DNA from: an uncultured Nitrososphaeraceae archaeon
Lineage (GTDB): Archaea; Thermoproteota; Nitrososphaeria; Nitrososphaerales; Nitrososphaeraceae
DNA length: 64,000 nt
Direction of reading: 5' to 3'
Assembly (NCBI GenBank): GCA_963729045.1
Contig: CAVSMN010000018.1
Span: 78,964-142,963, forward strand
Position numbers and translations under genes: made by a program. The notes under the pieces are model-generated. The model was not told where the DNA came from, made no database searches, and was given only the letters and a program-made list of their open reading frames with translations. Shown one piece after another: positions 367 to 60,921 of this stretch (the stretch's first letter is position 1; each line of letters starts with the position of its first letter).

Positions 367-412
367 GTTCTCATTCGTGGGGATCATGTTTCCTGCGGTA
401 TTAGGATTATAA
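367..412 (+). repeat. Dispersed ~45-bp intergenic repeat, arm type A
   Basis: gttctcattcgtggggatcatgtttcctgcggtattaggattataa aligns by eye to the consensus. Confidence 0.75.
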
Positions 413-599
413 TGCAAATATGGACATTTGATTTCAAAAAGAATTCGACAGGCTAGATAAGCTAGAAAAAAGTTACATCCTTACCTATTATTGCAATTGC
501 AATTCTAGTTTATCTTGCAGAGATATCTACTACACACTTATTGGAGGAAAGAGTCAATCTATTACATAAGAACGACCCCATATATCAGCATTACAATAA

Positions 600-1685
600 T
601 TATGTGGTCACCTTATCATTAGAAACTGGAGACCGACCTTTGCGAACCGTGTAGTAAATCGCTCCAAATCCTATACTAGTCACGATCACTTGGGCTATTT
701 GACCAAAGTAGGGAATAGGAACTATGTACAAAAGATTGAGTATGACAAATCCGATTAAAAAAGAAGAAATATTGTTGATATCTCCTGATGACGGCTTTCG
801 CCCCAATAACTCGAGGATTTTTTTTCCTATAGCAAACGATACCATTAAAGATGAGAAGATTAATCCAATGAGAAGAACCAATAAACCAAAAACTGAGACT
901 GGTATACCTACCACAGTGATTGCCGATAGTACTATTACAACTACGAACAATATGATTAATAGAAATCCCACCACCGTGTTTTTTATTATGGATTTTTTCA
1001 TAACCAACCGAACTGAATCAAACTGATTCGGTAGTAACTTGACAAGTATGATACCTAAAATACCAAATCCTATTACAAACAAAATACCAAAAAGATTAAG
1101 CCATCCTTCTATATCCGGCATCATTGAGTCTGGGCTCCTTACCTCTAGGTCTCCGATAGTGCCATTGTTTTGGAAATTGTCAGTCATAGCTACCAGTTGT
1201 CCTGATATATTACCCTCATTGGTGATAGTTCCGCCTGCAACATACGCGTCCTTAGTTACCACAGAAGTTGGATCGAAATGTATGTTGTTAGCTGCTAATA
1301 TTGCATTTGTTGATTTTCCCCCTAAATCTATCATACTTCCAGCAGCTACAATTTTTCCTGAAACATCTGCATTCACCGTTACTTGTCGCCCTGCAGCAAG
1401 AAGGTCACCCTCTATCGGTGCATTGACATGAATAATATTCGCAAATATTATCGCTCCTTTGACAGGGGCGTCAATATTTACCGTTTCTCCAAAGATTACC
1501 ACCTCATCTTGTATAGGTTCTTGTATTGAAATCTGATTTCCCGAAATAACTTGCAAAGCAAAGGCGGTATCTGGCATAACTAGTGGTACTAAAACTAGAG
1601 CTGTTATACAGAAGATGAAGAAATATTTTATTCTAGCAGAAACGCTATTTCGCAACATTTTATTAGATAACCAATACCTAGTCAA
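600..1685 (-). CDS. Membrane protein with N-terminal bactofilin/polymer-forming-like beta-helix repeats
   Basis: Signal/TM segment, repeated G-x-x-V-x-I-x-A-x-V-x-G motifs, several C-terminal TM helices; true start may be the downstream Met. Confidence 0.7.
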   Translation of the reverse strand: MTRYWLSNKMLRNSVSARIKYFFIFCITALVLVPLVMPDTAFALQVISGNQISIQEPIQDEVVIFGETVNIDAPVKGAIIFANIIHVNAPIEGDLLAAGRQVTVNADVSGKIVAAGSMIDLGGKSTNAILAANNIHFDPTSVVTKDAYVAGGTITNEGNISGQLVAMTDNFQNNGTIGDLEVRSPDSMMPDIEGWLNLFGILFVIGFGILGIILVKLLPNQFDSVRLVMKKSIIKNTVVGFLLIILFVVVIVLSAITVVGIPVSVFGLLVLLIGLIFSSLMVSFAIGKKILELLGRKPSSGDINNISSFLIGFVILNLLYIVPIPYFGQIAQVIVTSIGFGAIYYTVRKGRSPVSNDKVTT

Positions 1686-1899
1686 ATTTAAATTTATAGG
1701 GCAAACATTTTATCTATTACCATCATCCTTTACATTTATTAATACTTTAATTTAAGCAAAAATATGACTTTACCCATTTAATCGATATTTGAGAATATTT
1801 ATGGATGCATAAACAAACAACCTCAAGTCAAATAAGAGAATAAAGTCGTTGAACAGCACTATGGACAGAGAATAAAACTTATAGTCAGAATAATTTTGT

Positions 1900-2020
1900 A
1901 ATAGAAGAAGGCCTCTATTACAATATCCACAGTCTCTGGGCATTGTTGCATAACCCCATTACCTTCGCCTTGTGTCTATATCAACCACGCACCGGTTGTT
2001 TTTTCTGTTATTTTAATGAA
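1900..2020 (-). pseudogene. C-terminal remnant of an alpha/beta hydrolase
   Basis: Manual translation IKITEKTTGAWLI*TQGEGNGVMQQCPE resembles the hydrolase C-terminal pattern IAEKIPGAWLV...GGHGxMxQxP; contains a stop. Confidence 0.45.
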
Positions 2021-2072
2021 TTAATCGGTAGAGATAAGATATAATATCTTCGAGTCCAGTCATGACCAAAGA

Positions 2073-2116
2073 GCTGCTCTGCGGGGGATTAAGTTCCTAG
2101 TGGCACTAGGTTCGAA
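2073..2116 (+). repeat. Dispersed repeat, arm type A
   Basis: gctctgcgggggattaagttcctagtggcactaggttcgaa; perfect CCTAGTG-G-CACTAGG dyad. Confidence 0.85.
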
Positions 2117-2292
2117 TAAAGATGGATTGTACATACTCGCCCTAATCATGCTAAATCTTTTTTAATTAGGTTTTGTCATTTGGTCTAAAGATTTGCGATT
2201 ATGTTGTGAATTTCAAACTACCATTTCCATCTCTGAGCATGATACAGAACTGAAATTTATAATACCGTCATGATAATATAAAATGACTTTAG

Positions 2293-4478: not shown

Positions 4479-5756
4479 TTAAGGATTATTCATTAGTATT
4501 TGATCAAACCAATCAAATATCCTTTGATTAGTAATTGCAGGAGCCCCAGATTGACAATGTTCCTCAGCGCCTTCTTCTTCAGTAAAAAGTATATATTCTT
4601 TGGATGAAGATGGAACAGAAACTAGCCCATCGTAAACCTTTTTAGGTTGACCTGGAAATGAGTCATCCTTTTCAGCATCTAACACGAGGGTGGGTGTTTT
4701 AATATCTTTTATAATATCTTTGATTGAATACGCTTTTGCTCCAGTAATTAGTTTGTAGGGTGAATTGTTTCCGGTAGTATGCATCCCATGTTTCATATTG
4801 AATTTTATGTTTGCATCTGTTTCTATCAAACGATTTAGGTATGAATTTACAAACTCTGAGTCACCTTTTTCAACTGCATCTGATAATTCTGATGGGAATC
4901 CAGATTTTATAGAATCATATCCGTCATAAACGCCATTATAAAGAACACATGCAGATATACGAGGTTCAAATGCAATGGTCCTTGCAGCCAAATACCCACC
5001 CATACTTATGCCCATTAGAGCTATTTTTTTTGGGTCTATATTATATTCACTCTTTCTTGATAATGCAAAATCTAGTACAGGAGTCACAACTTTTTCCCAA
5101 TCATGTCTAAAAGGAATTTTCTGTTTACGAATTACTTCTCCCTGGCCTGGTCCCTCAAATATCAAACAATTATATCCTCTTTCTATTGCTGGTGCAGCTG
5201 CAAGAGAATATAGCTCTTCCAATGTGGAATCAAAACCGCCATGAGCTATTAATGTTGGATAGAGAGTGCCTTCATTATTGTCAAGATTTTTTCTACTATT
5301 TGTTAGATCATCAATTAATACTTGATTTGACTTTGGTACGTGAAAAAAGTAACCTGGTAGAGTGGTTCCTTCATATGGAATTTCCACTTGTTCCACAGGA
5401 AATGGAAATAACGCCGTAGCTTTCTTAAAGCATTTTTTACTTGATTCTATAGTATTTTGAATTCTTGGATCATCAGGCTCGACCAACAAGAATGCAGATA
5501 CACGATAGTAATTTGATGCTCGTAGATAAGCATCTCGTGCACTCACTTTATGATGTTTATTAATACAATCTTCCGCATAAGTATGGATCCTTTTTGCTGT
5601 CTTTAGCCATTCTTCATACCAACTATCAAAATTACCTTCCTTAATCCGATATGCTGTTGACAGACATTCTCCAATATCAGCTCCTCTAGAATATGTTTCA
5701 CTAATTGCTCTCAGCAATTGTAAAGAAAATGTAGGATCTTCAAAAACTAGCTTCAT
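4479..5756 (-). CDS. Alpha/beta hydrolase (FrsA / dihydropseudooxynicotine hydrolase-like)
   Basis: GISMGG nucleophile elbow, GGFDS, EGPGQG, HCQ catalytic His region. Confidence 0.85.
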   Translation of the reverse strand: MKLVFEDPTFSLQLLRAISETYSRGADIGECLSTAYRIKEGNFDSWYEEWLKTAKRIHTYAEDCINKHHKVSARDAYLRASNYYRVSAFLLVEPDDPRIQNTIESSKKCFKKATALFPFPVEQVEIPYEGTTLPGYFFHVPKSNQVLIDDLTNSRKNLDNNEGTLYPTLIAHGGFDSTLEELYSLAAAPAIERGYNCLIFEGPGQGEVIRKQKIPFRHDWEKVVTPVLDFALSRKSEYNIDPKKIALMGISMGGYLAARTIAFEPRISACVLYNGVYDGYDSIKSGFPSELSDAVEKGDSEFVNSYLNRLIETDANIKFNMKHGMHTTGNNSPYKLITGAKAYSIKDIIKDIKTPTLVLDAEKDDSFPGQPKKVYDGLVSVPSSSKEYILFTEEEGAEEHCQSGAPAITNQRIFDWFDQILMNNP

Positions 5757-5921: not shown

Positions 5922-6015
5922 TCACAAGGAAAAAATCATGATCCTAGGATGATCATATTTAAGAGTCCAAAATTATGAGTGTCACTAAATACTTTCATGA
6001 TATACTTTATAATAT

Positions 6016-7846
6016 ATGAATGAATATGAGAATTTTAAAACGGCCGATATTGTGGCTGAGGCACTCATAGATTGGGGTGTAGATGTTGTATTTGGGTTAC
6101 CTGGTGATGGTATCAATGGTTTTATTGAAGCACTAAGACAAAGACAAGACAAAATAAAGTTTGTTTTGGTGAGACATGAAGAATCCGCAGCATTTATGGC
6201 TTGTGCTTATGCTAAATATACAAAAAAGTTAGGAGTTTGTGTTGCTACGTCCGGGCCAGGTGCCATACATCTTTTAAACGGATTGTATGATGCCAAACTT
6301 GATAGTACACCTGTCCTGGCTATTACAGGTACCACCTATTCTGATCTTATTGGCTCCAACTATCAACAAGATGTCAATCTTTTGCAGCTGTTTTCTGATG
6401 TGGCTACATATAACAACATGATAAACTCACCAGAACATGCTGAAATGGCAGTAGATATAGCATGCAGAAATGCTTTGGGCCGTAGAGGAGTGAGTCACTT
6501 GACCATTCCAATAGATGTCCAAGAACAAAAATTAAAAGGTAAATATTCCCCACATAAGGTAAAGGGCCATACCTCGGATATTTTTAACCATGACGTTATT
6601 CCAAGTCCGGAATTACTAAGAAAGGCTGCAAATATTCTCAACGAGGGAAAAAAGATAGTAATACTGGTCGGTCAAGGAGCTCTAGACGCTAGTGACGAGG
6701 TTGTTACCATTTGTGAAATGCTTAATGCCCCTGTAGTCAAAGCCCTTTTGGGAAAAGCCGTAATTTCCGATTACAGTCCCTACAATCTTGGAGGTATTGG
6801 CATGTTAGGAACGAGTCCCGCCAGTGACGCAATGAATGAAGCAGATACGATACTAATGATAGGAACATCCTTTCCATATATTGACTATCTTCCAAAACCC
6901 GGACAAGCAAGAGGAATTCAAATTGACATTCTACCTGAGAGAATCGGATTACGATATCCTGTGGATATAGGGTTGGTTGGAGACTCCAAACAAACACTGA
7001 ATTCTCTGATTCCGCTCCTAAACAAAAGATATAAAGAAGATAACGAATTTTTAACATCAAAACAAAAAGAAATGAAAAAATGGGCAAGTTTGTTAAAAGA
7101 ACAAGGCAGTCGGTACTGACAAGCCCATTAAACCTCAAGTCATAGCTACTGCTGTTTCCAATGAATTAGATGATGATGCCATTATCTCCGTAGATAGCGG
7201 AACCAATACTATTTGGGCCGCCCGGTATATTTTTGTTCATGATAAAATGAAATTTTCGCTCTCGGGTACTCTTGCAACAATGGGATGTGGTTTGCCATAT
7301 GCAATAGCAGCCAAAATTGCATTTCCAGATAGGCAATCGGTGGCTTTTGTCGGGGATGGAGGTTTCACCATGTTAATGGGGGAATTTGCAACAGCAGTTC
7401 AATATGATTTACCAATCAAGGTTGTGATAATAAAAAATAACACATTAGGAATGATACGGTGGGAACAAATGGCTTTTCTCGGAAACCCCGAATATGCTGT
7501 AGAATTTACTCCTATTAATTTTGCAAGTTTTGCTGATGAATGCGGTGGAAAAGGCTATACTATTACAGAACCAGGAGATGTAGGACTAATCATTCACCAA
7601 GCAATGAAGGAAAAAAAACCCACAATTATTGAAGCGTATGTAGATCCATTTGATCCTCCAATGCCTCCAAAAGTGGAACCGGAGTTTGTAAAGAACATTG
7701 CGGAATCATTTGCAAGGGGACAACCATATGCCTCCAGGATAGGCTTAACACTCTATAGAAATCAGATCCATGAAAGATTACGAGGTCTCCATCATCATAA
7801 TTCATTAAAAGATCATGATCACAAGAGTTCTTATAATGAGACATGA
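6016..7846 (+). pseudogene. ThDP-dependent pyruvate oxidase/dehydrogenase (PoxB-like), +1 frameshift at ~7112
   Basis: FGLPGD, RHEESAAF, TSGPG, GDGGF..NN motifs; removing one G at 7112-7113 joins the two ORFs (may be a sequencing error). Confidence 0.85.
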
Positions 7847-7962: not shown

Positions 7963-8007
7963 GTTCTAATCCGTGCGGATTAAGTTCCATGTGGTAGTAT
8001 GTTCTAG
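7963..8007 (+). repeat. Dispersed repeat, arm type A
   Basis: gttctaatccgtgcggattaagttccatgtggtagtatgttctag. Confidence 0.88.
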
Positions 8008-12404: not shown

Positions 12405-12448
12405 TTTATTATCAAAAGTAGGTTTGTAATGCTTTGATTATAAGCATT

Positions 12449-16564: not shown

Positions 16565-16606
16565 GTTCTCATCCATGAGTATTGAGTTCCTTGCAATAAC
16601 AGAATC
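16565..16606 (+). repeat. Dispersed repeat, arm type A (diverged)
   Basis: gttctcatccatgagtattgagttccttgcaataacagaatc. Confidence 0.65.
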
Positions 16607-17700: not shown

Positions 17701-17819
17701 CTATAATAATCATTATTGTTTCTAGATAACATTATTTAAGAATTAATTTTGAAGGTATATGAAATGCAAACTTGACGAGAAGATACTTTTATTCAATCAT
17801 CGTCATAACTATTAGTTCG

Positions 17820-17854
17820 CATCATCCATTGAGAACTAGTAACAAATTTGACTA
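17820..17854 (+). repeat. Dispersed repeat core with arm type C
   Basis: catcatccattgagaactagtaacaaatttgacta; arm shared with 19134. Confidence 0.55.
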
Positions 17855-18032
17855 TAAAATTGAGTTGGAATAAGATGTTGATAAGGTAGCAATTTAAGAC
17901 TATCACGAACATACTAAATAAAAAATTTTAACTATTAAGCCAATGGTAAAATATCGATTAAATCTAAAATTAAGGATGATTGATTGACACTTTATCTATC
18001 AACCAAACTCTGCAGAGTACTACGGCAGATTA

Positions 18033-19087: not shown

Positions 19088-19133
19088 AGGGTCACAGAGA
19101 AGATTTAAAGAGATTTATTCTGATACGTCATTC

Positions 19134-19166
19134 GGGGCGTATGGGAGCTAGTAACAAATTTTACTA
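19134..19166 (+). repeat. Dispersed repeat core with arm type C
   Basis: ggggcgtatgggagctagtaacaaattttacta; TAGTAA-6-TTACTA dyad. Confidence 0.5.
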
Positions 19167-19930
19167 ATTTAACGGATTTATAGACAGAAATCTTGATGTG
19201 TAATTCAATATTATCAAGTTAATTTTCAATGTGATCCCTTCAATATTAATTGTCTTAAGAGCTTGCCTACCGATACCTACTCCATAGTCAAGTTTTGATT
19301 AGTAAATTTCATACTGATCTTTACTCATCAACTATAAATCTACACAGATCAAGAATTATCAAACGATACTCGTAAAAATCAATATATATCCAGGAGAAGA
19401 ACATACTCATCTCCATATGTACTAATTGTTCTCTTATGCTTTTATTCCATAATACAATTCTGTGAATGGCTAACCCCAAATCTAATCTCCGATCTGCAAT
19501 GGTAAAGTCGCATCCAATATTTTGATAGAACAATTCTGCTACTTTTTCTTGTGTATTATATTTTAGTAGAATCTAGATAAAAGCCCATATAGTAACTGGC
19601 CAGTGGATTTAGTAATGGATGTGTTATGAGTATAAATTACTTATTTTTTTAATTCTAAGAAATAGGAAATGAATGAACAATTTCCTAATTTCTTCTATAG
19701 AAATTCGTTATTCTACTATCAAATTCCTGATTGCTCATAATACTTAAGAATTAATTACAGTCTAATGATTAGTAAACAATAACGGGAATCAAAGATACTA
19801 AGGATCTTTTTGTTGAATACCAAACCAATCAGTTTTTCATTTTTTTCCAATTTAGTGGTGGTTATAATCATTGGATAAGGTATTCAAAACTAATAGCAAA
19901 TGTTATAAAATAGGTTTGAATGAATAATGT

Positions 19931-22975: not shown

Positions 22976-23018
22976 GATCTTATCCTTAGAGATAGAGTTC
23001 CTAGTGGTAATTTGGCTC
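22976..23018 (+). repeat. Dispersed repeat, arm type A (diverged)
   Basis: gatcttatccttagagatagagttcctagtggtaatttggctc. Confidence 0.65.
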
Positions 23019-29949: not shown

Positions 29950-29988
29950 ACCCATGGGATCAAAGTTCCTAGTGGCACCAAGGTTCTA
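29950..29988 (+). repeat. Dispersed repeat, arm type A, with left flank shared with 58091-58163
   Basis: acccatgggatcaaagttcctagtggcaccaaggttcta. Confidence 0.8.
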
Positions 29989-31997: not shown

Positions 31998-32043
31998 GTT
32001 CTCATCCATGAGGATTAAGTTCCCTGTGGTAGCAGGGTTCTTA
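31998..32043 (+). repeat. Dispersed repeat, arm type A (near consensus)
   Basis: gttctcatccatgaggattaagttccctgtggtagcagggttctta. Confidence 0.92.
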
Positions 32044-33119: not shown

Positions 33120-33164
33120 GTCCTCATCCGTGGGGAATAAGTCCCTAGTGGTATTATGGTTATG
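33120..33164 (+). repeat. Dispersed repeat, arm type A
   Basis: gtcctcatccgtggggaataagtccctagtggtattatggttatg. Confidence 0.88.
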
Positions 33165-34192: not shown

Positions 34193-34234
34193 GTCGTCAT
34201 GATTGGGATTAAGTTCCAAGTGGTACAGGGTTAG
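34193..34234 (+). repeat. Dispersed repeat, arm type A
   Basis: gtcgtcatgattgggattaagttccaagtggtacagggttag. Confidence 0.8.
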
Positions 34235-34738: not shown

Positions 34739-34764
34739 GTCCTCATCTGTGCGGATTAGTTCTC
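34739..34764 (+). repeat. Dispersed repeat, left part/core only
   Basis: gtcctcatctgtgcggattagttctc. Confidence 0.65.
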
Positions 34765-35232
34765 AATAAACCTTGTGGAATTTAATCTGAAATCCAAAAG
34801 TTAAAGATTGTTAATCAGAATCAAAAATTATTTTATTAGATGTGAATCAATCTGCTTTTGTTGAGAAAGAATCAGAGCCATAATAAAGGCGAAATGTCTG
34901 GAATGACAGGAATCTGAATTCTCGCCTAAATAAAATGTCAGGAATAACCTTATGTCATGCTTTTTCTTAAATCATGTTATAATTTGAAATCCGCAATAGA
35001 AAGAGAAAATGTCCGACCTTTCATTCTCTTTTCAAAATCAATGGATAACAAAACAACCCGAGAAGATTACACTTTTTGAATTTTCTACATGATCTGTCAT
35101 TAATAATGATAAAGAGTGATTCTAATAATAGTTGAGTTGAATAGTTATTGTTGCCCAAATGGTCTTGCCTGACTTATAAAACTCTGAGCCTATGCAAAGG
35201 CCATTGAGAAAGTCTTTATTGAAATTGTCTCT

Positions 35233-43636: not shown

Positions 43637-43655
43637 AGTGGTAGTAGGGTTCTAA
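43637..43655 (+). repeat. Dispersed repeat, right arm (A) only
   Basis: agtggtagtagggttctaa, exact match to consensus 3' half. Confidence 0.7.
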
Positions 43656-43890
43656 TACCTTAATGATAACATATTTCTAAAATATTATTTTTCATAAGCT
43701 AGCCCAGGGGGCATTACAATAAACTTATTTTGAGCGTAATTTTGTTTTGTGTTAAGATCAAAAATAACTGAATTTTCAAATCGAACTTAAGAGGTTTTGG
43801 GTCGGATACGTAAAAGGGGGAAACAAATACTACGAAAAGTTCAAGTTAAAGATTTCATAAATAATTAAAATAAATTAGATGATGCATATT

Positions 43891-46482: not shown

Positions 46483-46533
46483 TCTCGGCCTTTGAGGATT
46501 AGTGCTGGTATCGGTGTTTTAAATTGGATTTCC
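46483..46533 (+). repeat. Dispersed repeat core with arm type B
   Basis: tctcggcctttgaggattagtgctggtatcggtgttttaaattggatttcc. Confidence 0.65.
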
Positions 46534-46592
46534 AAATCAATAGTAGAAAGATATACTTCAACTCTTTATAGATAAACCGGAATTATGATTGA

Positions 46593-49285: not shown

Positions 49286-49334
49286 ATATATTTCAAAATT
49301 TGTACCATTCTTTTTATAGCACCATTATTATATA

Positions 49335-49375
49335 GGACCAATGGGGATTAAGTTCCCTACAGTAGTAGGGTTATA
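49335..49375 (+). repeat. Dispersed repeat, arm type A
   Basis: ggaccaatggggattaagttccctacagtagtagggttata. Confidence 0.88.
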
Positions 49376-49466
49376 CCTTTGTTGAGAGAAGATCCTCTTA
49401 ATCAAAATATCAGTCCTTTATAGATTCTCTTGCATCCAGATTAGTCAAAGAATAATATACATTATT

Positions 49467-51221: not shown

Positions 51222-51262
51222 GAGTCCATGGGGATTAAGTTCCCTGCGGTGGTGAGGTTTTA
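51222..51262 (+). repeat. Dispersed repeat, arm type A
   Basis: gagtccatggggattaagttccctgcggtggtgaggtttta. Confidence 0.88.
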
Positions 51263-51358
51263 ATACCAATAACAGTATAACTCTGGTGGCAGGATACTCA
51301 AACCATAAAGTTTATTTTTTTATACAGTCCGGCTGCTACTTAATATATGACAGCCTCA

Positions 51359-52015
51359 TCATGAGGAATACAATTTTTTGACCTCTGCGAACCGACGAGC
51401 CCAATCTGGTGGTACCTGATTATTTAGAATGGCTTCAAGCCGATCTAGGTACGCATGCCAACCAGGGGCTAAACTTAAAGCTGTTGATTTGGTGAGGCGG
51501 CTGTGAGTTAGTATAAGTAGTGTGTCCGTGTTTGAATCGCCATCCTGCTTGAGCTCCCACCGTATAACAGATTCAGGTTCTCCATTAGGGAACATTTGAT
51601 TAGGAGCGATATGCCACTCATACTCAAAAACATTGTGAAGATCCCAGATCAGAATATCTCCAGTTACGTGTGATCCTGATACGGTATTGACAAGATCAAT
51701 CGCACCACCATTGTACCCGTCGAAGGTTCCTCTATAATCGGGCAACCACCTGAATATCTCTTTTGGATCTGTAATTGCTTTCCAGACCGCCTCTTTTGGA
51801 TTAGAAAGTCGGCGTTCAAACTTTATTGCTCCATGCGTTTCTTCAATAGTTATGGTTCCTTTAGATTCAGTATTCAGTGTTTTATCGTTTCCCCTCATAT
51901 TTGAAGAAAAGCTTTGTTCAACATTTTCATTTGTTATTTCAAACTCTGTCATAAATACAATATACTTGTACAGATACTTATCTTTAGGGGAAGCAAAACT
52001 CCTAATATCGGACAA
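51359..52015 (-). CDS. SRPBCC/AHSA1-domain protein
   Basis: FERRL..P.E.VW.AITDP....W, L.LTH, GWH.YLD.L; start probably ATG near 51952. Confidence 0.85.
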   Translation of the reverse strand: MSDIRSFASPKDKYLYKYIVFMTEFEITNENVEQSFSSNMRGNDKTLNTESKGTITIEETHGAIKFERRLSNPKEAVWKAITDPKEIFRWLPDYRGTFDGYNGGAIDLVNTVSGSHVTGDILIWDLHNVFEYEWHIAPNQMFPNGEPESVIRWELKQDGDSNTDTLLILTHSRLTKSTALSLAPGWHAYLDRLEAILNNQVPPDWARRFAEVKKLYSS

Positions 52016-52046
52016 CTTAATTACTAGTTATTGCAACAATTAAATC

Positions 52047-53018
52047 ATGACTGAGGATGAAGGGATATTAGTCCTTGATAAAACTGATCTAACCATTCTT
52101 TCCACATTAGCTAGGAACTGCAGATCTTCTTATAGCAGCATAGGTTCAGAGGTTGACTTAACATCAAAGAGTGTAAAGGCACGAGTCAAGAAGATGGTAC
52201 ATCACGGGGTCATCGAAAAATTTGTAGTTAGAGTTAATCCTACAACTTTTGGATTCAAGGTAGCTATTGTACTTTTAAAAACTAGCAATGGAATAAATAA
52301 AGATGATGCCATTCGACAGGTAAAGCAACTTGGTGACCTTGCATATCATGTACATCATATGGGAAGAACATGTGTTGCAGCGCTAATCATCGAAAAGTCA
52401 TTAGATGATACAGCCATCCAATCATTGAATCATCTCTTAAAACCTGCAACCGTTGTGAGTATTAGCATTTTAGAACGACATGTTGAATCAATCGGTATAA
52501 GCGAAACAGATTTCAGAATAATAAAATGTTTACTGTTATTAGGGGCAAGGACAGAAATAGCAGATATTGCCAAGGAAGTTGGTATTTCTGAAAAAACCAC
52601 AACAAGACGTCTTATTAGGATGAAGGATGCAAGAATATTAGATTTCTCAATCCAGTGCAATCCATCTGTTATGGTAGGATATATTCAATTTGCCATTCCG
52701 ATTATCACTACAAAATTTCATCGTCGAAGTGTACTTGAACGCATGTACTCAGAATTTCAGGCAAATATTTTATACAGTCCTAGTGTGATTGATTCAGAGG
52801 ATAGACTGACTTTCGTACTCTTTAGTGAAAACATATTCACGGTGGATTCTGTTATAAATAAGGTAAGCTCCTTTGAAGGGGTTAAAAGTGCGGATGTATA
52901 CATACTTACAAAATGGCAATATCATGATGACTGGATAAGAAAAGAGATCAATAATAGAATACCCCGACGACAACCACTTTTGTATGGATCTATCAAAATT
53001 AATAATACCATTGATTAA
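52047..53018 (+). CDS. Lrp/AsnC-family regulator with two HTH domains
   Basis: LDKTDL.IL..L..N.R.SY and SETD.RII..L....R..I.DIA..VGIS..T..RRL. Confidence 0.85.
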   Translation: MTEDEGILVLDKTDLTILSTLARNCRSSYSSIGSEVDLTSKSVKARVKKMVHHGVIEKFVVRVNPTTFGFKVAIVLLKTSNGINKDDAIRQVKQLGDLAYHVHHMGRTCVAALIIEKSLDDTAIQSLNHLLKPATVVSISILERHVESIGISETDFRIIKCLLLLGARTEIADIAKEVGISEKTTTRRLIRMKDARILDFSIQCNPSVMVGYIQFAIPIITTKFHRRSVLERMYSEFQANILYSPSVIDSEDRLTFVLFSENIFTVDSVINKVSSFEGVKSADVYILTKWQYHDDWIRKEINNRIPRRQPLLYGSIKINNTID

Positions 53019-53039
53019 TAATACAATCGATTAAGAACA

Positions 53040-53102
53040 GTCCTCATCCATGGGGTATTAAGTTCCTCCACTGTGATAATGGTAACGGTAATGGGGTTCT
53101 AA
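53040..53102 (+). repeat. Dispersed repeat, arm type A with internal expansion
   Basis: gtcctcatccatggggtattaagttcct-ccactgtgataatggtaac-ggtaatggggttctaa. Confidence 0.82.
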
Positions 53103-53338
53103 CATATTTATGACTTAATTTACGGAGCTATAAATTGGACGGCTCAAATGTATTGCCTTCATTCATATATTAGAATAAATTATTTATTAAAATTGATTCT
53201 ATGATTCAGTTAACTCTGATTCAGTCAAAGTTAAATGATAATTAACAATTAAAAAATAGAACCCAATTTATCTGGAAAGAAATTGAATTCTTTGATATTA
53301 ACATAATCATAAATACTCTCATTACCATAAATTTAGAA

Positions 53339-53944
53339 ATGTATGATCAAATTCAATTCACAAACTTTTTTGGCACCTCTTTAACTCTTATTCTTATTAT
53401 TTTCTCTACAATCCCAATAACTTCTTACTCTTATGATGGATTCTCGGTCGCAAGAAATGATACATCTCATAATGTCTCCAACTCCTCCAAAGTTTTAGTC
53501 AATATAACTTTTGATTCCCTTTTTATCAACAATGATAAAAATCTATTCGGAAAAGGTTTATGGAATTTTTCAGTTGATATAAATGATAAACCCATAGAGT
53601 TACTTGTTAACGAAAAAGTAAATGAGGGACAAACAGTCAAGTTTAACGGAAAAAATATCTCATTAGTGATGCCTATATCAGATACTCTTTATTTGTTTTC
53701 TCAGCCTTATTATATTCAAAAAGCAGGAAAAATAGGTATTCTTGATTGGATATCTGAAAAGTATAATCAAACAAATAATTTTGGAAATGGAAGTCATATC
53801 GCAATTACGGATGATGGCAAAGAGGATACTGTTAATATTAATTTGGTGATTTACAAATACACTGCAATTATAAACAAGGACCCTGATTATGTTTTAAGAT
53901 ATCACATAGAAGCAACTCCTTTAAGCAACAATCTTGTAAACTAA
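53339..53944 (+). CDS. Secreted hypothetical protein
   Basis: N-terminal hydrophobic segment, many NxS/T sequons. Confidence 0.65.
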   Translation: MYDQIQFTNFFGTSLTLILIIFSTIPITSYSYDGFSVARNDTSHNVSNSSKVLVNITFDSLFINNDKNLFGKGLWNFSVDINDKPIELLVNEKVNEGQTVKFNGKNISLVMPISDTLYLFSQPYYIQKAGKIGILDWISEKYNQTNNFGNGSHIAITDDGKEDTVNINLVIYKYTAIINKDPDYVLRYHIEATPLSNNLVN

Positions 53945-54112
53945 TTTCTTCTTTTATAACGATTATCTAGAATAATTCATGATTTATGATTAACTTGTAC
54001 TATTGTTAATATGTTTACAATTACTGGTGGAAGTACCATCAGACTAACCTATTTTTTTCATCTTTAGCATGTTCACAATACAAGTTTAAAACTGCATCAT
54101 TAATTTACAAAA

Positions 54113-54164
54113 GTTTGCATCCGTCGAAATTAGTGTTGATATCGATATTTTAAAAGAGATTCTA
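54113..54164 (+). repeat. Dispersed repeat core with arm type B
   Basis: gtttgcatccgtcgaaattagtgttgatatcgatattttaaaagagattcta. Confidence 0.7.
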
Positions 54165-54365
54165 CTTATATACATTAATGGTAGAATTTAAAGATTATTG
54201 AAAATAATTATGCTTGATAAAATGTCTAACCATTAGTGATAATAATTGTTGAACAATAATTCTTGAATCGATTTCGACACATATGGAATTGTGGATATTT
54301 CATCATCCTCGTCTAAATCAATTGCTATAGATTATATTACATAATAGAGTTGATAGTGTATAAAA

Positions 54366-55541
54366 ATGGTAAACAAATCAGATGCGGGCAATAACAAATT
54401 TAGATCCTGGAGTGGCCCTAATTTATTAAATTATACACAAAATTACAAGAGACGTGTATTATTCTCAATTATTTCTGTATTTGTTTTATCTACAGTTTTC
54501 TTATTAATAAATGCGTATCCTACAGGTAATGCACATGCACAATTATATCCTTTTATCGCATCTACCCGCGGATCATTTGATACGACCAATGGGAATGAAA
54601 CTCAACAAGTAGAATTGCCTTCAGTTCTTTCAATTTTAAATATCAAAGATTGTCCAGGAGAACTAGCAATCTATGTTCACGGTATATGGGCCAGTGATTT
54701 GCAAGCAGAAGAGCAATCTGACAGAGTATCCCTATCATTACGAGATTCGGGTTATGATATTCCGCTGATAGGATTTAGTTGGGATTCAAATACTGCTTTC
54801 TCCCTTGATAACGCAACATTATCCTATCACGGATGGATGATAGCAAAAAAAATAGCTAATGAAAATGGTCCAATATTAGGAAAATTTATTTCTGATTATA
54901 AGACAGAGTGTCCTGAAGATAAGATAAGGATTATTGCGCATTCACTTGGTTCAAGAGTAACCTTATCGGCTCTGCAATGGATTCATGATAACATCAACGA
55001 ACAAAATGATAACAATACTTCGAAAGAAATAACATCAGTGCATCTGATGGGTGCTGCAGTTAACAATGACCAAATCTCAACAAACCCAAATGATTGTATT
55101 TCTTATATGCCTTATTTACCCTGTTCTGGAGATGCTATTCAATCCGAAGTAGGATATTTTTCTAATTTGTTTAATCCCGAAGATAACATGCTAGCAGGTG
55201 AAATAAATCCATTCTGTTGGATATGTGGTTTAGTAAAAAGCCCTTATGAATTAAGTGAAGGTCATAATGCCCTTGGAGCTTACGGGGCTGCATCTACTAT
55301 AGTTGTACCCTCTAATTTTGACGAAACGGATGTATCATCCCTAATCATTGTTGATACCGATTCAAATAAAGATGGCGAATGTGACATACGATATCCTGTT
55401 ACCCATATTTGTACAATTTCTAAAAACGGTGATAATCATATGGGGTACATGGGATATAGGGATAATATCTACAGACAGACTGTGCATGATAGTGGAGCAA
55501 TAAAACAAATAGTTGATGATTGGCAAAGTGAGAACAACTAA
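54366..55541 (+). CDS. Secreted alpha/beta hydrolase (DUF726/DUF900-like)
   Basis: IYVHG, FSWDS, AHSLG nucleophile, HLMGAA, DNHMGY. Confidence 0.82.
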   Translation: MVNKSDAGNNKFRSWSGPNLLNYTQNYKRRVLFSIISVFVLSTVFLLINAYPTGNAHAQLYPFIASTRGSFDTTNGNETQQVELPSVLSILNIKDCPGELAIYVHGIWASDLQAEEQSDRVSLSLRDSGYDIPLIGFSWDSNTAFSLDNATLSYHGWMIAKKIANENGPILGKFISDYKTECPEDKIRIIAHSLGSRVTLSALQWIHDNINEQNDNNTSKEITSVHLMGAAVNNDQISTNPNDCISYMPYLPCSGDAIQSEVGYFSNLFNPEDNMLAGEINPFCWICGLVKSPYELSEGHNALGAYGAASTIVVPSNFDETDVSSLIIVDTDSNKDGECDIRYPVTHICTISKNGDNHMGYMGYRDNIYRQTVHDSGAIKQIVDDWQSENN

Positions 55542-55594
55542 TCAGATATTATTGTGCAGTAGGAATGAATTTTAGAAATCAAGGTACAGCCCAA

Positions 55595-55637
55595 GTCCCT
55601 CCCCATGGGATTGAGTTCCGAGGGTAATAGAGTTTGA
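55595..55637 (+). repeat. Dispersed repeat, arm type A (diverged)
   Basis: gtccctccccatgggattgagttccgagggtaatagagtttga. Confidence 0.7.
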
Positions 55638-56007
55638 TAACATTAAATGATTTGAGTCTACGTATTAACCTTCATGAATGACGACATTAATTTATGTCAC
55701 ATCATTATTTGTGCTTCTAATCGGTCCTAACCCTTTGAATCGACCTTTACAATCCTCATTAGCGCATAATAGATTGGTGATTAAAATTATGATGTACATA
55801 TAAGCTGGAATTTCCAGGTCCCTATTAGAGATAAGTTTTGCATCCTTTAGGCTCATTTCAACTTTTGAGCCGACTTTTCAGATACTCTGTTGCAACACAT
55901 TACATACATTCATCATGTTCTTTTTAGTCGATATTATGACTTTGATAATATATGGTAATAAAACCCAATAATAAAAATCTTAAAAAGATGTACGTTATTG
56001 TAATATT

Positions 56008-56235
56008 ATGAATAAAACATACAATATTGTATTTGTAACAATCACTATCCTCTCAGTGATAATAGCTGCAACAGCTATAATGAGTGAATCCTTTGCATTT
56101 AACCCTGTCTCTAAGAAACTTAACGATCGTGCAAATGCTTTGGAGAAGGAAGCAGAATAGACCCAAAAAGATGGTAATGACGTAAAAGCATTTGCAAAGA
56201 GTTTGATGGCTAAAAAATTGAGAGAAAAGGCTTAA
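56008..56235 (+). pseudogene. Small secreted helical protein with in-frame TAG at 56158
   Basis: MNKTYNIVFVTITILSVIIAATAIMSESFA-FNPVSKKLNDRANALEKEAE*TQKDGNDVKAFAKSLMAKKLREKA*. Confidence 0.5.
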
Positions 56236-56914
56236 TTTTCCATATCACCATATTTTTCTTTAAGGCGAATAAGTTTTATCTTTAAAAAAGTAACTTCATA
56301 TGGACGAGCGTCTAAAGCCCAAAGCAATGTTAAAGCAACTTGATTTCTCTCATAACTATCATACTTGACAATAGTTAGAATATCTTTTTTCCCAAAGTTC
56401 AGTTTCTAAATATAGACTCGATCGCCTAGTTTTTTTTATCTATTTTTAAAAAGAGAGGTGTTTTCAGTCCTTTGATTGAAATATAGATTTCTTCATTATT
56501 AGGATTATCCCTTAATCCACTAAAGTCTTTAGTATTATGCAATCATCTAAAGAAATATTTTATTCTACAAAGATAGTCATACCAGGTTGTAACTCATCGT
56601 ATATCAGAATCTACTTCTGAATTCTTGATTTTGTATCTTGAAAAGCTAGAATTTGGTCTCTCTTAGTAGTAGATTGAAAGGATATAGCAAATTCTAAAAA
56701 CTTTCCAAAAGCTATTTTGGTTTTAAGATTATTATTTTGATATTTATCTGAAGTAGATAATAACTTCATAGAATTTTACTCTTGTTATATCCTAATTAAC
56801 AATAAATTTAACATAATTATTATTTTCTTATATTTCTGTTATGGACGCTAGGGATGGATGGTCAACCTATGGAGTTTATATTTACACCATTTTCTTATAA
56901 GGTAGTTATTTTCA

Positions 56915-57298
56915 ATGTTATCTGTTATGTTTAAAATAATGGATTTGGACCCAAATGTAAATATTAAAACACAGTTAGATGAAGAAAATACCAACCCTGT
57001 GATTCTATTAAACAAATTCATTGTAAAGCCAGAGGATATAGAAATATTTCTAAAAGTATTTGAGAATACTACCAAAATAATGAAACAACAACCTGGATTT
57101 ATATCAGCACAGTTACATCAAGGTATTGCTGGAAGCCATACGTTCTTTAACTATGGAGTTTGGGAATCTGCTGCACATTTTAAGCGGGCCTTTAATAATC
57201 CTGAGTTCCAAAAATCTATGGCTGAACTGCCACAGGACACTGTTATGTCGCCTCATTTGTTTAGGAAGGTGGCAATATCCAACATATGTGTAGATTAG
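56915..57298 (+). CDS. ABM-family monooxygenase
   Basis: PV.L.N.F.V, MKQQPGFISAQLH.GIAGS, WES. Confidence 0.85.
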   Translation: MLSVMFKIMDLDPNVNIKTQLDEENTNPVILLNKFIVKPEDIEIFLKVFENTTKIMKQQPGFISAQLHQGIAGSHTFFNYGVWESAAHFKRAFNNPEFQKSMAELPQDTVMSPHLFRKVAISNICVD

Positions 57299-57327
57299 AC
57301 TGCATATTTTTTTGTAAATTTCTATGT

Positions 57328-57951
57328 TTACTTTGAAATTACTACAAAAAGTGCTTTGGGTAACGGATTTAATGTGCCCTGATAAACGGTTTCCCTAATG
57401 CCTTGTACTTTGAATCTACTGTTTTCAAATGTTTTTTTTATCATATCATTTGAAAATCTGTAAGGTCCAGTATCTCTCACTGGTTCTTTTTCGCTAAAGC
57501 ATTTCAAGAACAATAGCCCTCCTTCTTTTAAAATTCGGTTTACTTCCTCTGTATATATCGACCTTTTTTCTGGTGAAATTACGTGGAAGCATCCTCTATC
57601 AAAAATAAAGTCAAATTCGTTACTGCTTAAATGAGAATTTACAATATCATCAACTATAAACTTGATTTTATTGTTCATTTTGTTATTATAACGAACTGAT
57701 GCTTTATGAATTGCTGTAGGGGACAGATCAGATGCAGTGACTTCAAAACCTCTTTCAAAAAGTTTTATTGCTTGTGTCCCAGGTCCGGTCCCAAGATCAA
57801 GGAAGGAGCCTTTTTTGATTTTCATTTTATCTAATTCTAATTCTAAATCATGATCAAGAGATTCATTATACCACGGCATGGATTTCACTTCTTGGTTTTT
57901 GTATAGAGTTTCCCAGTCAGGAAATGATCTTGTATTTTCTGTCATGAACAA
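57328..57951 (-). CDS. Class I SAM-dependent methyltransferase (TPMT-like)
   Basis: LDLGTGPG, D.S..AI, FDFIFDRGCFH. Confidence 0.9.
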   Translation of the reverse strand: MFMTENTRSFPDWETLYKNQEVKSMPWYNESLDHDLELELDKMKIKKGSFLDLGTGPGTQAIKLFERGFEVTASDLSPTAIHKASVRYNNKMNNKIKFIVDDIVNSHLSSNEFDFIFDRGCFHVISPEKRSIYTEEVNRILKEGGLLFLKCFSEKEPVRDTGPYRFSNDMIKKTFENSRFKVQGIRETVYQGTLNPLPKALFVVISK

Positions 57952-58146
57952 ATTCTATATAACATGGAATAATATTAACAAAGGCTCTGGATATTGTCTT
58001 TTAATTTCTGGAGTCATTAACGCATAGACAATCGTAAATACGGAGGATCGAACTCGTGATTAAAATTCCCTGAGTAATGAAATTGTTGTTGCATCTATTA
58101 TACGATATCCTTCAATTTGGGCCTAAAAAAAGGATTCAGTTATGAA

Positions 58147-58197
58147 GTGGGCCCGTGGGGATTAGTGCCGATATCGGTATTTTAAATAGAGATTCTA
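58147..58197 (+). repeat. Dispersed repeat core with arm type B
   Basis: gtgggcccgtggggattagtgccgatatcggtattttaaatagagattcta. Confidence 0.75.
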
Positions 58198-58411
58198 GCA
58201 TTAGATAAAAGAAGGTCTGATTTAAGGATTTAGAATATTTTGAGATGACATCAGTATTTTAGGACAGATTCTATTGTTTGTCTACAGAAAATAGATTTAT
58301 CATCACCTCCAATTTGTATTTAATACTTAGTTCTTGGCGAAACAGAAGCGGAATTGAAATTTGGAACTTTATAGGTCGTGTTACATCAGTTTTTATATTG
58401 CAAAAAAATAG

Positions 58412-58940
58412 TTATTGTTTTTCGATTGAGGGAACATTCACAATACACTCTATCTTGGTATGAAAACCTTGTTTGTTTATTCCACCAAACCTTAATTTAT
58501 GTTTTCCAGGTGGAAGAGGCTTTAGAAGATGCCAATATCCAACCGTAACTGCAGTATGTGTCCCGGGATCAGCATTCTCATTTGTCAAAAGGTGATTCGA
58601 TGGGACACTTATATTGAAAGGCCCCGTCTCTACGTAATGTGGTTTTAAATCTACCCCATCTAGAAAATATTCCATTTCTATAGGGGAATCTGAATCATCT
58701 CTAGCCATTCGAAGAAGATCTTCAGGTGTAGAATTGATTCCATCTTCAGCAGTGGAATATTCACAACAAAAAACAGGTATCAGGATATCCTTTTTCCTGT
58801 CTTCAGGACGCATATCGAATATTCGATCACACGCTTCGCCACCCCAGTACAAGGCAACATCAAACAGGGATCTTGATTAACTTCACCAGTTTTTAACGGA
58901 TTGGTGTCTTATTTTGTTATGTGATAATGGCATACATATG
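58412..58940 (-). pseudogene. Hypothetical protein, 5' part frameshifted
   Basis: IL.PV...EYS, GYW..LKPLPPG.H.L.FGG; upstream HPLKTG...MLPCTG is in another frame. Confidence 0.55.
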
Positions 58941-59040
58941 AAGTTCATATTGTGTCAATCTATGAACTGAATTAGCCTACAACAAATGGTATATATAGTG
59001 GAGCGCTGACAATTCACAGCATTAATCATAGTTAGGTGGA

Positions 59041-59424
59041 TTGGAATCAGAAATGGCAAATACTATTAGAACACTCCTATATCTGGGGGCTGCAGCATGT
59101 ACGGGTATAACTGGAATTTTACACCTCATGTTAGTTCCAAGCTCGATTGTTGCTGGTATCCAATACACTGCGTTTTTTTTGATTTCTGGTCTGTTACAGC
59201 TCTTTTGGGTTTTACCCATGGTAAAAAGATGGGGTAGGATTTGGAATATTATCGGATTTGCGGGTACGGCTGTGTTAGTGGGTTTAACTGGTTACGTAGT
59301 CATTGAATCGGTTGGGAATCCTCAGTCGACACCACCTGGGGTAACTGAATTGGCAGTTGCAATAGAAATATTTCAGATATCATATGTTATAATTACTGCA
59401 ATAATTATAGTTACCAGAAGATGA
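59041..59424 (+). CDS. Small 4-TM membrane protein
   Basis: AA..T.I.GILHL, FF...G..QLFW..P....W. Confidence 0.75.
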   Translation: MESEMANTIRTLLYLGAAACTGITGILHLMLVPSSIVAGIQYTAFFLISGLLQLFWVLPMVKRWGRIWNIIGFAGTAVLVGLTGYVVIESVGNPQSTPPGVTELAVAIEIFQISYVIITAIIIVTRR

Positions 59425-59829
59425 TATCTGAACATCATCACTTGACCTGAGTGATGAATGATAGGAGTTAAAATGCATGATGGTACTCGCGAACGTTGTA
59501 ACCCAATTACTTTACCATCTAAAGTATATTTAAATAAATCAATTGTGTCAAAAACACTTGCCAAGTTAGAAGCAGATGGGATCCTTCAGAGAATACAAGA
59601 AGCATACTATTTCGATTGGAGTTCCCAGAATTACATTCTCGTGGACGATCAAAATCTGAAAAAAGACCTGAATTGCTTGTAATGTATAAATTTACAAATG
59701 GCATAAAGATTACCGTAGAATACGTTAGGATATACCTTCATTATTTCTCATTTTTTGTTTTAATCCAATTTCAAAAATCTTAATTATTGTCATATGCTAA
59801 ATGAATTTGATAATGATGGTTAACTAATA

Positions 59830-59874
59830 GTCTGGGCGCGTTGGGATTAAGTTCCTAGCGGTAGTAGGGTTCTA
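59830..59874 (+). repeat. Dispersed repeat, arm type A
   Basis: gtctgggcgcgttgggattaagttcctagcggtagtagggttcta. Confidence 0.88.
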
Positions 59875-59960
59875 CGACATTTCATAGTAGATTTGATATT
59901 CTTAAAAAAGCACGTTATATCGTTATGTTAGTAATAATTCAACAATTTAATACATTGAAT

Positions 59961-59999
59961 GGAGCCGTAGGCACTAAGTTCCTTTTGATATGGGTTTTA
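59961..59999 (+). repeat. Degenerate copy of dispersed repeat
   Basis: ggagccgtaggcactaagttccttttgatatgggtttta. Confidence 0.45.
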
Positions 60000-60194
60000 T
60001 CAAAGATTTTACTCGACCATGGTCATGAGAAATCCCAGAATATATAATCCACCATCATCATGCTAAGTTAATAAACTAACAATTATCCAAAAGACCGAAA
60101 GGTTATTTATGTGAAGCATGTAGAAATAGGAGTCCATGAATCTGCTTTACCAATAAATATTTAATAATTAAACTAATGCTACTTACGTTAGGCC

Positions 60195-60788
60195 ATGTAT
60201 GTCGCATTAACTTTATCAATTACTATACTTGCATCGTTGTATTTTATTATTCAGATGACTGAAACAGTTATATCATCTGAATCAAAATTATTACAACAGC
60301 CACAACAAATTCAATCATATATAGCAAACTTAACTGGTGATAACAACATACCTCCTGTAAACACCAATGCAATGGGTATTGTTAAATTTATTACCAATGA
60401 TCATTACTACGATAATAATGAAGTATATTATGAAATAAATCTTACAAATATACATAGTGATGTGGGAAAAGTTGAAGTTCACTTGGGGAAAATGAATGAA
60501 AATGGACCTTCTGTGGTTACGTTGTATCAAAAAACGACATCCCTACCTTCAGAAATTTGTTGCACATCTGCTGATTCAGAAAATGAAAGAACTAAACTCT
60601 TCTTCAATGGAACAGTTTTTACACAAGCCTTTGAATTTGGACCATTAGCAGGCAGCAAAAACATTACAGATTTAGTCAAGCTTTTTAATAATGGTAGTGC
60701 ATATGTACAAGTTTATACATATCATCCTGACTCTCTAAGTTTGTTTGGTATGGATAGCGAAATCCGTGGCCAAATTGCAAAGCAATAA
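60195..60788 (+). CDS. CHRD-domain protein
   Basis: A.LTG...PPV.T.A.G, H.G...ENGP.V..L, G.AYV.V.T, EIRGQI. Confidence 0.85.
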   Translation: MYVALTLSITILASLYFIIQMTETVISSESKLLQQPQQIQSYIANLTGDNNIPPVNTNAMGIVKFITNDHYYDNNEVYYEINLTNIHSDVGKVEVHLGKMNENGPSVVTLYQKTTSLPSEICCTSADSENERTKLFFNGTVFTQAFEFGPLAGSKNITDLVKLFNNGSAYVQVYTYHPDSLSLFGMDSEIRGQIAKQ

Positions 60789-60875
60789 CTTGTAGTAGTT
60801 TTCATACTAACAAATTTTATATCCCAAAAACAAGACAAAAGGATTTGTGCATATTTGAAATACCTTATTAGATAG

Positions 60876-60921
60876 GTTCTTATCCAAAGGGATTATGTTC
60901 CTAGTGGTAGTATGGTTCTAA
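60876..60921 (+). repeat. Dispersed repeat, arm type A
   Basis: gttcttatccaaagggattatgttcctagtggtagtatggttctaa. Confidence 0.88.

Follow-up and report, generated by a model that had tools for sequence, protein, structure and literature searches.

The 64,000-nucleotide stretch of DNA analysed here, referred to as the window, is a segment of contig C18 (G000:C18:78964-142963) of an uncultured Nitrososphaeraceae archaeon, the assembly of which (G000; 2.85 Mb, 22 contigs) is 87% complete. A repeat of about 45 nt lies at intervals between the genes of the window and divides them into small groups. An earlier inspection of the letters, designated the sequence-only reading, had listed 22 positions of this repeat and proposed that they were the joints of an undescribed, integron-like array built up by a site-specific recombinase encoded elsewhere. 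The core of the repeat, GGGGATTAAGTTCC, allowing up to two mismatches, occurred 11 times in the window, always on the + strand, compared with 0.31 occurrences expected from shuffled sequences, and the same family was recovered by an unsupervised repeat search. Site models obtained by iterated nhmmer on the window and the whole of G000 defined 20 full sites in the window, 15 of type A, three of type B and two of type C. All 20 were on the + strand, so the claim of a single orientation held. The list of 22 positions was correct for these 20, but the remaining two, 34739 and 43637, did not reach E<0.05 in the models and were recognised by eye as half-sites only.

Read along the + strand of the window, a site consisted of a variable 5' arm, a conserved core, GTGGGGATTA(A)G (aligned consensus cGTGGGGATTA(A)G), and one of at least three 3' arms. 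The common 5' arms were of two types, type i (..AACAGTTCTCATCC) and type ii (..AGTYTGGGCGCG). The 3' arm was TTCCyrGTGGTAgtaGGGTTCTAAT in type A, TGCCGATATCGGTATTTTAAATAGGATTCTA in type B and TAACAAATTTGACTAT...GGTTC in type C, and at least one more of these variants, each about 30 nt long, was present. The arms occurred in different combinations. Among 80 sites of G000 and its closest complete relative, G041, type i was joined to A in 17 and to B in one, and type ii to A in 16, to B in nine and to C in four, while the 5' arm of the other 33 was unclassified. The 45-nt copies were approximately 62-82% identical to one another.

The type A sites of the window were located at 369..412 (5' arm type i, E 1.7e-6 genome-wide), 2084..2115, 7965..8006, 16567..16602, 22978..23018, 29950..29988, 32000..32041, 33123..33163, 34203..34230 (weak 5' arm), 49338..49375, 51225..51263, 53043..53102 (16-nt insertion in the arm), 55599..55635, 59838..59874 (5' arm type ii) and 60878..60921. 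The type B sites, which shared the 5' part with the others and differed in the 3' arm, were at 46485..46538, 54116..54168 and 58148..58200, and the type C sites at 17813..17882 and 19125..19200. The half-site at 34739..34772 had a 5' arm and core only and fell under the threshold of the hidden Markov model (HMM), and that at 43637..43661 had a type A 3' arm only (E 0.64 with the first model); both were also on the + strand.

Over the whole of contig C18, 35 of 36 sites were intergenic. The open reading frames (ORFs) were taken from a greedy call of frames of at least 70 aa, not from gene prediction. Those flanking the sites of the window were co-oriented with the site in 27 cases and anti-oriented in 30 (15 and 20 in a second, left array on the contig), in agreement with the earlier claim that the polarity of the sites is independent of gene orientation. 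Consecutive sites in the window were 1.0-12.3 kb apart, with a median of 1.78 kb. The intervening ORFs, in units of 1-3 genes, belonged to unrelated Pfam families (hydrolases, glyoxalases, transporters, regulators, a Rieske protein, a helicase), as expected if the repeats separate functionally unrelated modules. The last two sites, 59838 and 60878, bracketed a CHRD-domain cassette that was also found on contigs C1 and C13.

The sequence-only reading had suggested a scan of the genome and its relatives for clustering and strand bias. There were 37 type A copies in G000 at E<0.01, confined to a few arrays and not spread over the genome. The + strand of C18 carried 15, all in the window, and its - strand carried 10, at 0.8-30.5 kb; the other 12 were near the starts of contigs C1, C12, C13, C17 and C21, all on the - strand. 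Type B copies had the same polarity pattern. No type A copies were found on C18 between 30.5 and 79 kb, and from 52 to 79 kb the contig and G041 were collinear, the blocks being 2.2 to 8.9 kb long; the array therefore begins near the left end of the window. The GC skew of the three parts of C18 was near zero. Replication polarity was considered as the cause of the strand bias and rejected. In G041, + sites were present on both sides (130-324 and 609-669 kb) of orc1/cdc6 at 564 kb, beside which we take the origin to lie, as in Nitrosopumilus. The polarity did not simply switch at the presumed origin, a possibility the sequence-only reading had raised, and instead followed the tRNA-Lys gene that anchors each array, as described below.

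Of 24 other genomes of the genus, 23 contained a 13-nt core motif with at most one mismatch, and in most of these the count greatly exceeded that of a reversed-pattern control. The motif was also present in 11 of 16 genomes from other families, at counts that were only close to the control. By this sequence criterion the site motif appears to be restricted to one genus, probably Candidatus Nitrosocosmicus, a name suggested by the best relatives of the integrase described below among named records, which were Candidatus Nitrosocosmicus metagenome-assembled genomes. In viral contigs a 14-mer of the site gave at least 118 chance matches, with no full site in the 80 loci inspected, and a 21-mer gave no matches.

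The origin of the site was revealed by comparison with tRNA genes. The models were searched, with the strand recorded, against a 9.4 kb database that comprised all G000 tRNA genes with 100-nt flanks and two tRNA-Lys(UUU) loci of relatives. On the opposite strand, the core and 5' arm proved to reproduce the 3'-terminal 11-17 nt of a tRNA-Lys gene; for tRNA-Lys(UUU), the copied end in the sense of the tRNA is AATCCCCACGG(GCCC). The sequence-only reading described the strand that is antisense to the tRNA-derived part. The type ii 5' arm together with the core was the reverse complement of the 3' end of tRNA-Lys(UUU), which reads ...CGAATCCCCACGGGCC..., as at the type B site 58148, while type i sites had only AATCCCCACGG in common with the tRNA. 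The models matched GGCCCGTGGGGATTCG on the minus strand in all three tRNA-Lys(UUU) loci, and a B or C arm matched the flank directly 3' of the gene on the plus strand (E 0.004, 0.0008 and 0.003). An initial assignment of the 5' arm to the tRNA end in the same sense had been misled by the palindromic GGGCCC and was overruled by the strand-aware search and the geometry of the arrays.

The arrays were anchored at tRNA-Lys genes in the three complete relatives of the same genus used for this purpose, G012, G015 and G041. In G012, tRNA-Lys(UUU) at 1,175,528 on the - strand was separated by 0.9 kb from the nearest site (1,174,573), and 19 of 19 sites were co-oriented. In G041, tRNA-Lys(UUU) at 339,074 (-) was 15 kb from an array at 130.8-323.8 kb with 34 of 34 sites co-oriented, and in G015 the same gene at 514,164 (+) was 38 kb from an array at 552-684 kb (16 of 17 co-oriented). 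Two second arrays accompanied tRNA-Lys(CUU), one in G041 at 1,356-1,442 kb, downstream of the gene at 1,344,188 (+), and one in G015 at 2,407-2,453 kb, with the gene at approximately 2,476 kb (-). All five pairs had the same arrangement: the array lay 1-40 kb downstream of the tRNA gene, and the tRNA-derived cores were co-oriented with it. An intact tRNA remained at one end of the array in each of the three genomes, and the tRNA gene that the sequence-only reading had proposed to look for was thus present at the array end in the closest complete relative. Moreover, the sites of the second arrays carried the tRNA-Lys(CUU) end instead, with, for example, 15 of 16 positions matching in the first such site of G041. 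In G000, the sites on C18 were closer to the UUU end in 23 cases and to the CUU end in three, with eight tied, and those on contig C21 were closer to the UUU end in none and to the CUU end in three, with one tied. Judged by sequence, the core matches whichever tRNA-Lys anchors the array. No tRNA genes were found in the window itself. The tRNA-Lys(UUU) gene of G000 is on contig C9, 3 kb from its start, followed by a B-like arm, and C9 would accordingly be linked to C18 in the genome. Public metagenome contigs selected by a 21-nt site pattern showed the same regularity, the sites being co-oriented in 43 of 44 multi-site loci, some of which share a contig.

The recombinase had been predicted to lie outside the window, and the results agreed with this. 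None was found among the 141 of the 144 called ORFs of C18 that were covered by the Pfam scan, three being left out, and the 19 intervals between sites in the window contained no integrase hits and only units of 1-3 ordinary accessory genes. The tyrosine recombinase family PF00589 had no hits in G000, and in the complete genomes only sub-threshold hits that adjoined arrays; the integrase family was recovered only by protein search. In G041, a tyrosine integrase gene (G041:C1:323964-325208) directly followed the last sites of the 194 kb array and was itself followed by primase-like and P-loop genes, with tRNA-Lys(UUU) 14 kb beyond. The protein and its homologues are 414-438 aa long, and the R, HxxR, H and Y residues were invariant in all five sequences aligned. 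The integrase matched phrog_1 (E 1.5e-15); among NCBIfam models there was no integron-integrase hit, only XerA at 31 bits against a cut-off of 220. A search for an attR of the G041 element found no downstream repeat of the site that adjoins the integrase.

Homologues were usually located directly after tRNA genes: tRNA-Lys(UUU) and tRNA-Ser in G015, tRNA-Arg in G041 and on contig C12 of G000, and tRNA-Lys(CUU) on contig C14 of G000. The family was present, often as pseudogenes, in 31 of 34 genomes of the genus and occurred also across the Nitrososphaeria. An integrase fragment of 65 aa was found within the left array of C18 (C18 12569-12763), and at two metagenome loci, L265 and L285, an integrase pseudogene was approximately 70-100 bp from a site. 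A serine resolvase was present in one copy per complete genome, far from the arrays. At another locus in G015 (L026; G015:C1:1796-1809 kb) the order was tRNA-Ser, integrase, a site, 11 kb of genes (including ThiC, a CrcB-like and a thioredoxin-like protein) and a second, near-identical site; the pair brackets cargo, with the integrase proximal, on what looks like one integrated element.

The sequence-only reading had anticipated that breakpoints between related genomes would fall in the repeat. The nucleotide identity of G041 to G000 is approximately 88%, and the content of the window was found at 127-196 kb of G041, in the same orientation, in short blocks. Among gaps between neighbouring ORFs, counted only where both neighbours were in this region of G041, nine of the 11 with a site were rearranged and two collinear, compared with one rearranged and 18 collinear of the 19 without a site (Fisher p 3.5e-5). 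Rearrangement junctions coincided with sites 49338, 51225 and 54116. The helicase cassette that follows site 2084 was 164 kb away in G041, G041 had 7.5 kb extra exactly at site 16567, site 19125 marked the start of a 1.7 kb segment specific to G000, and site 29950 was within a 1.1 kb segment missing from G041. Sites 33123 and 55599 were collinear. Orientation was preserved: all 21 window blocks mapped to G041 on the + strand, and 10 of 11 blocks of the left array were inverted together with their inverted sites. The order of the blocks changed, for example from a b c d e f in G000 to d a e f b c in G041, and in another genome, G046, the cassettes were in a third order, with 11 of 11 blocks on the + strand. 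The occurrence of the same units of one or two genes, with the same ends, in three different orders means that differential loss alone is insufficient and that small units moved after they had become small.

The composition of individual sites located the exchange more precisely. Site 32000 corresponded to the flanks on both sides of a 1.8 kb cassette specific to G041 and was a hybrid of the two G041 sites, consisting of the 5' part of one and the 3' part of the other. A methyltransferase cassette ended with the same 5' arm in G000 and G041, but the 3' arm that followed was of type B in one genome and of type A in the other. In G046, the upstream cassette and 5' arm of site 53043 were joined to the 3' arm and downstream cassette of site 16567. 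The hybrid sites indicate, at the level of sequence, that the crossover is in the core. Recombination among strains was followed in contigs assembled from four metagenome runs of soil, sediment or rhizosphere, each run belonging to a different study, and placed on window positions 44001-64000 at an identity of at least 95%. A contig of 1,451 nt from run X3 followed the window from 56971 to 58162, within the core of the type B site at 58148, and then continued for 259 nt into a different arm (ACGATTCAAGGTTGAATAGAATCTA...) and a different cassette. A contig from run X10, which belongs to another study, had an identical junction at 58162. In a second X3 contig, a different upstream context that ended in GTTTGGGCGCGTG was joined at 58157, and the depth of X3 dropped past 58 kb. 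These strain junctions, like the broken site gaps in the comparison with G041, agree with the anticipated breakpoints. An apparent joint in run X6 (56736>61844) had only 21 letters on one side and was not used.

These observations are best explained if the repeats are att-type sites of conservative site-specific recombination, forming a tandem array anchored at tRNA-Lys, an interpretation that we consider likely. The tyrosine integrases of elements integrated at tRNA genes, including tRNA-Lys(UUU), would act on the sites in trans. Cassettes that lack an integrase would enter as circles with one arm-plus-core site, could be inserted at any site of the array and would leave by recombination between the sites that flank them, a scheme that would work like an integron without IntI or attC. 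A stronger version is quite possible, though short of probable: that this is a true cassette system, functionally equivalent to the integron, that evolved from an ordinary tRNA-targeting tyrosine integrase. Gene-sized circles would be captured, excised and re-inserted anywhere in an array of 60-195 kb by integrases acting in trans, and it is mainly through the array that these soil and skin ammonia oxidisers would acquire accessory genes.

Several observations weigh against this interpretation. There is no intact integrase in the window, three genomes (G006, G017 and G023) have sites with no integrase hit, and in G012 no integrase was seen in the approximately 0.9 kb between the tRNA and the array. 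Adjacency and the tRNA-Lys target are what suggests that the divergent tyrosine integrase family of the genus may act on the sites. In G000 the anchoring tRNA is on a contig other than C18. Relative to the tRNA locus, the arm of the sites is inverted with respect to the tRNA-derived core; the inversion may represent a P-arm versus a P'-arm and would fit a P-arm/core reading of attR-like joints. When alignment ends were counted in a cruder comparison with G041, 16 of 64 were within 60 bp of a site, only a modest enrichment over the 18% of random intergenic positions, and one rearranged junction (C18 120,443-120,969) had no site. The genes of a thiamine-pyrophosphate (TPP) enzyme (window 5958-7839) had their G041 counterpart at 1.578 Mb, outside the arrays and free of sites. 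Finally, the boundary of a duplication shared by C18 and contig C1, at window position 58908, had no site.

Two of these regions had further features. The TPP enzyme was split into two ORFs on the + strand, 6016-7116 with the N-terminal and middle domains and 7247-7843 with the C-terminal domain. The duplicate, 5.1 kb at window 58908-64000 (C18 137871-142963), was 96% identical to C1 6755-1659 and 93% identical to a segment of C13, and the boundary at 58908 was a loose end in the contigs of three runs as well. This is due either to heterogeneity of strains in the assembly or to a segmental duplication.

The main rival of recombination at att-type sites is passive decay, in which full-size elements integrated serially at tRNA-Lys and then degenerated, so that the sites are scars and nothing smaller than a complete element ever moved. 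This explanation draws on the integrase pseudogene fragments inside the arrays of C18 and of the metagenome loci L265 and L285, on the complete-looking element, with integrase and primase-like genes, between array and tRNA in G041, and on the re-use of one att site by archaeal elements to form arrays, as described in the searched text of Krupovic et al. 2019 (PMC6563490). Against it stand the three orders of the same small units in G000, G041 and G046, which loss alone cannot give, and the 19 intervals of the window without an integrase; we regard it as unlikely. Should the sites be simply short homologies, the rearrangements would have arisen by RadA-dependent or illegitimate recombination between them, with no site-specific enzyme, and any dispersed direct repeat can lead to deletions. 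However, the copies are only approximately 62-82% identical over 45 nt, all joints that were mapped are confined to the tRNA-derived core, a window of about 15 nt, and the sites come from the classical target of integrases, the 3' end of a tRNA gene, which makes such an origin very improbable.

A functional RNA or a regulatory or structural DNA element, such as a terminator, an insulator or a protein-binding site, would make the overlap with breakpoints a consequence of shared intergenic location. The B arm does contain a TATA-like TTTAAATA and a palindrome, but the polarity of the sites ignores the genes, the breakpoints were enriched relative to intergenic gaps without a site, and the sites are derived from a tRNA. 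Rfam returned nothing at gathering thresholds and RNAalifold found no structure, while a two-hairpin model showed no covariation beyond that of shuffled sequences (76.8% paired versus 75.9%). Single-strand folding of the kind seen in attC sites was likewise absent on both strands of 56 type A and 18 type B sites (mean z -0.25 to +0.01). Since no folding beyond that of shuffled controls was found, the sites are not attC-like, and no attC boxes were seen by eye, in line with the earlier remark that they were lacking. It would be surprising if an RNA or regulatory role were the explanation. Even less credible is a repeat of the miniature inverted-repeat transposable element (MITE) or repetitive extragenic palindromic (REP) kind, spread by a single-strand transposase with a replication-strand bias. 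Short intergenic copies with a local strand bias are what such a repeat would leave, but PF01797, the Y1 transposase family, had no hits in G000 (87% complete), the copies are confined to arrays, + sites occur on both sides of orc1 in G041, and the arms assort independently. The homology, RNA or regulatory, and MITE explanations all fit the data worse than site-specific recombination at tRNA-derived sites.

The array is therefore best described as tRNA-anchored accretion at att sites, of a known kind, with unusually small, reshuffled units that lack an integrase, and as integron-like in function. Arrays anchored at tRNA or tmRNA genes include the ssrA islands of Dehalococcoides and the tRNA arrays of Sulfolobus. 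The present array resembles them in that the direct repeats derive from the 3' end of the tRNA at which the array is anchored and share its orientation, an intact tRNA remains at one end and the cargo is accessory; in G015 and G041 a tyrosine integrase from a family that targets tRNA genes is also nearby. It differs in having units of 1-3 genes without an integrase of their own, at a median spacing of 1.3-1.8 kb, and 20-45 or more sites per array over 60-195 kb; in addition, each site has a conserved arm of about 30 nt with interchangeable variants, and the units are permuted between species. Streptococcal integrative and conjugative elements (ICEs) provide another parallel. They undergo accretion-mobilisation, in which cis-mobilisable elements, flanked by att sites and without an integrase, are probably mobilised by a related element that integrates next to them and supplies the integrase. 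The cis-mobilisable elements, like the units described here, are att-flanked segments that lack an integrase, but the streptococcal arrays contain two or three elements of many kilobases, in contrast to dozens of gene-sized units, here in an archaeon.

The likeness to integrons lies in the small, heterogeneous cassettes, in the single co-oriented site at each joint, in the shuffling of cassettes with orientation kept and in the many arrays without an adjacent integrase, which recall CALINs (attC clusters lacking integrase). Unlike integrons, the system has no IntI, its sites have neither single-strand folding nor attC boxes, a tRNA anchor replaces attI/Pc, and the cassette genes run both ways and, as a result, presumably carry their own promoters. 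Consequently, the term integron-like in the sequence-only reading stands as an analogy, for co-oriented joints and reshuffled cassettes, but not in the strict sense, which would call for IntI, folded attC sites and co-oriented promoterless cassettes. The broader proposal of a site-specific gene-accretion system was borne out by the clustering of the copies, the polarity set by the anchoring tRNA, the breakpoints in the sites and, in the closest complete relative, the integrase and tRNA at the array end.

Integrated elements of Thaumarchaeota have been catalogued; according to the text searched, their att sites are short, with a median of 17 bp, and elements with a tyrosine recombinase form arrays by re-using one site (Krupovic et al. 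2019, PMC6563490). The word Nitrosocosmicus did not occur in that searched text. Archaeal integrons with canonical IntI and attC have also been reported, in a paper in the searched text of which neither Nitrososphaeria nor Thaumarchaeota occurred (Ghaly et al. 2022, PMC9668308). For Nitrosocosmicus, the portion consulted of Mahnert et al. 2026 (PMC13245735) mentioned only genomic islands flanked by integrases. Full-text literature searches, which did not cover supplements, returned no description of this repeat or cassette array.

Integrons are the textbook case of the capture of gene-sized cassettes, and those published from archaea rely on the same IntI/attC machinery. An unrelated route, through a tRNA-Lys att site and a divergent tyrosine integrase, appears to reach an integron-like architecture in the arrays described here, which belong to ecologically important ammonia oxidisers and reach approximately 195 kb (roughly 5% of the genome), with 45 or more sites. 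If the cassettes are indeed mobile, this would explain the exchange of niche genes among these archaea, make their flexible gene pool recognisable in metagenomes by a simple sequence signature and supply a candidate integrase/att pair from which genetic tools could be developed for a lineage without any.

Other repeated sequences were present in and around the array. A family of repeats of approximately 0.53 kb occurred on C18 at 4813-5364, 23902-24459, 41300-41816 and 53445-53961, with four copies on C13 and one on C16. Two of the copies were 100% identical. It was considered as a recombination factor and rejected, the repeat encoding a 150-aa low-complexity secreted protein, rich in N, Q and S, with a signal-peptide-like start; no family hit was obtained for this protein. 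Fragments of an IS240-type DDE transposase were found at window 36500-37065 (-), and a segment of approximately 670 bp at 36485-37157 recurred on contigs C11, C13, C15 and C21; most genomes of the genus contained it too. Three tandem units of 129 bp (window 29014-29400; the second and third 95% and 64% identical to the first) within the ORF at 28962-29366 (-) form the repeats of a ricin-B-type lectin. Two 40-nt copies of GTTTCAATCCTTGTTCTATTGGAAT... at 42854-42893 and 43073-43112, 93% identical and 219 bp apart, were in a stretch without an ORF of at least 70 aa, with a weaker third copy at 5806.

In the collinear flank just outside the array, at C18 64.6-68.6 kb, a Ku homologue (L004:4611-5468, +) was adjacent to a 993-aa LigD (L004:5588-8566, -) with phosphoesterase, ligase and primase-polymerase domains, and a separate ATP-dependent DNA ligase was encoded at L003:2952-4826 (-). 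Ku, LigD and the ligase make up, as predicted from their sequences, a complete gene set for non-homologous end joining in an archaeon.

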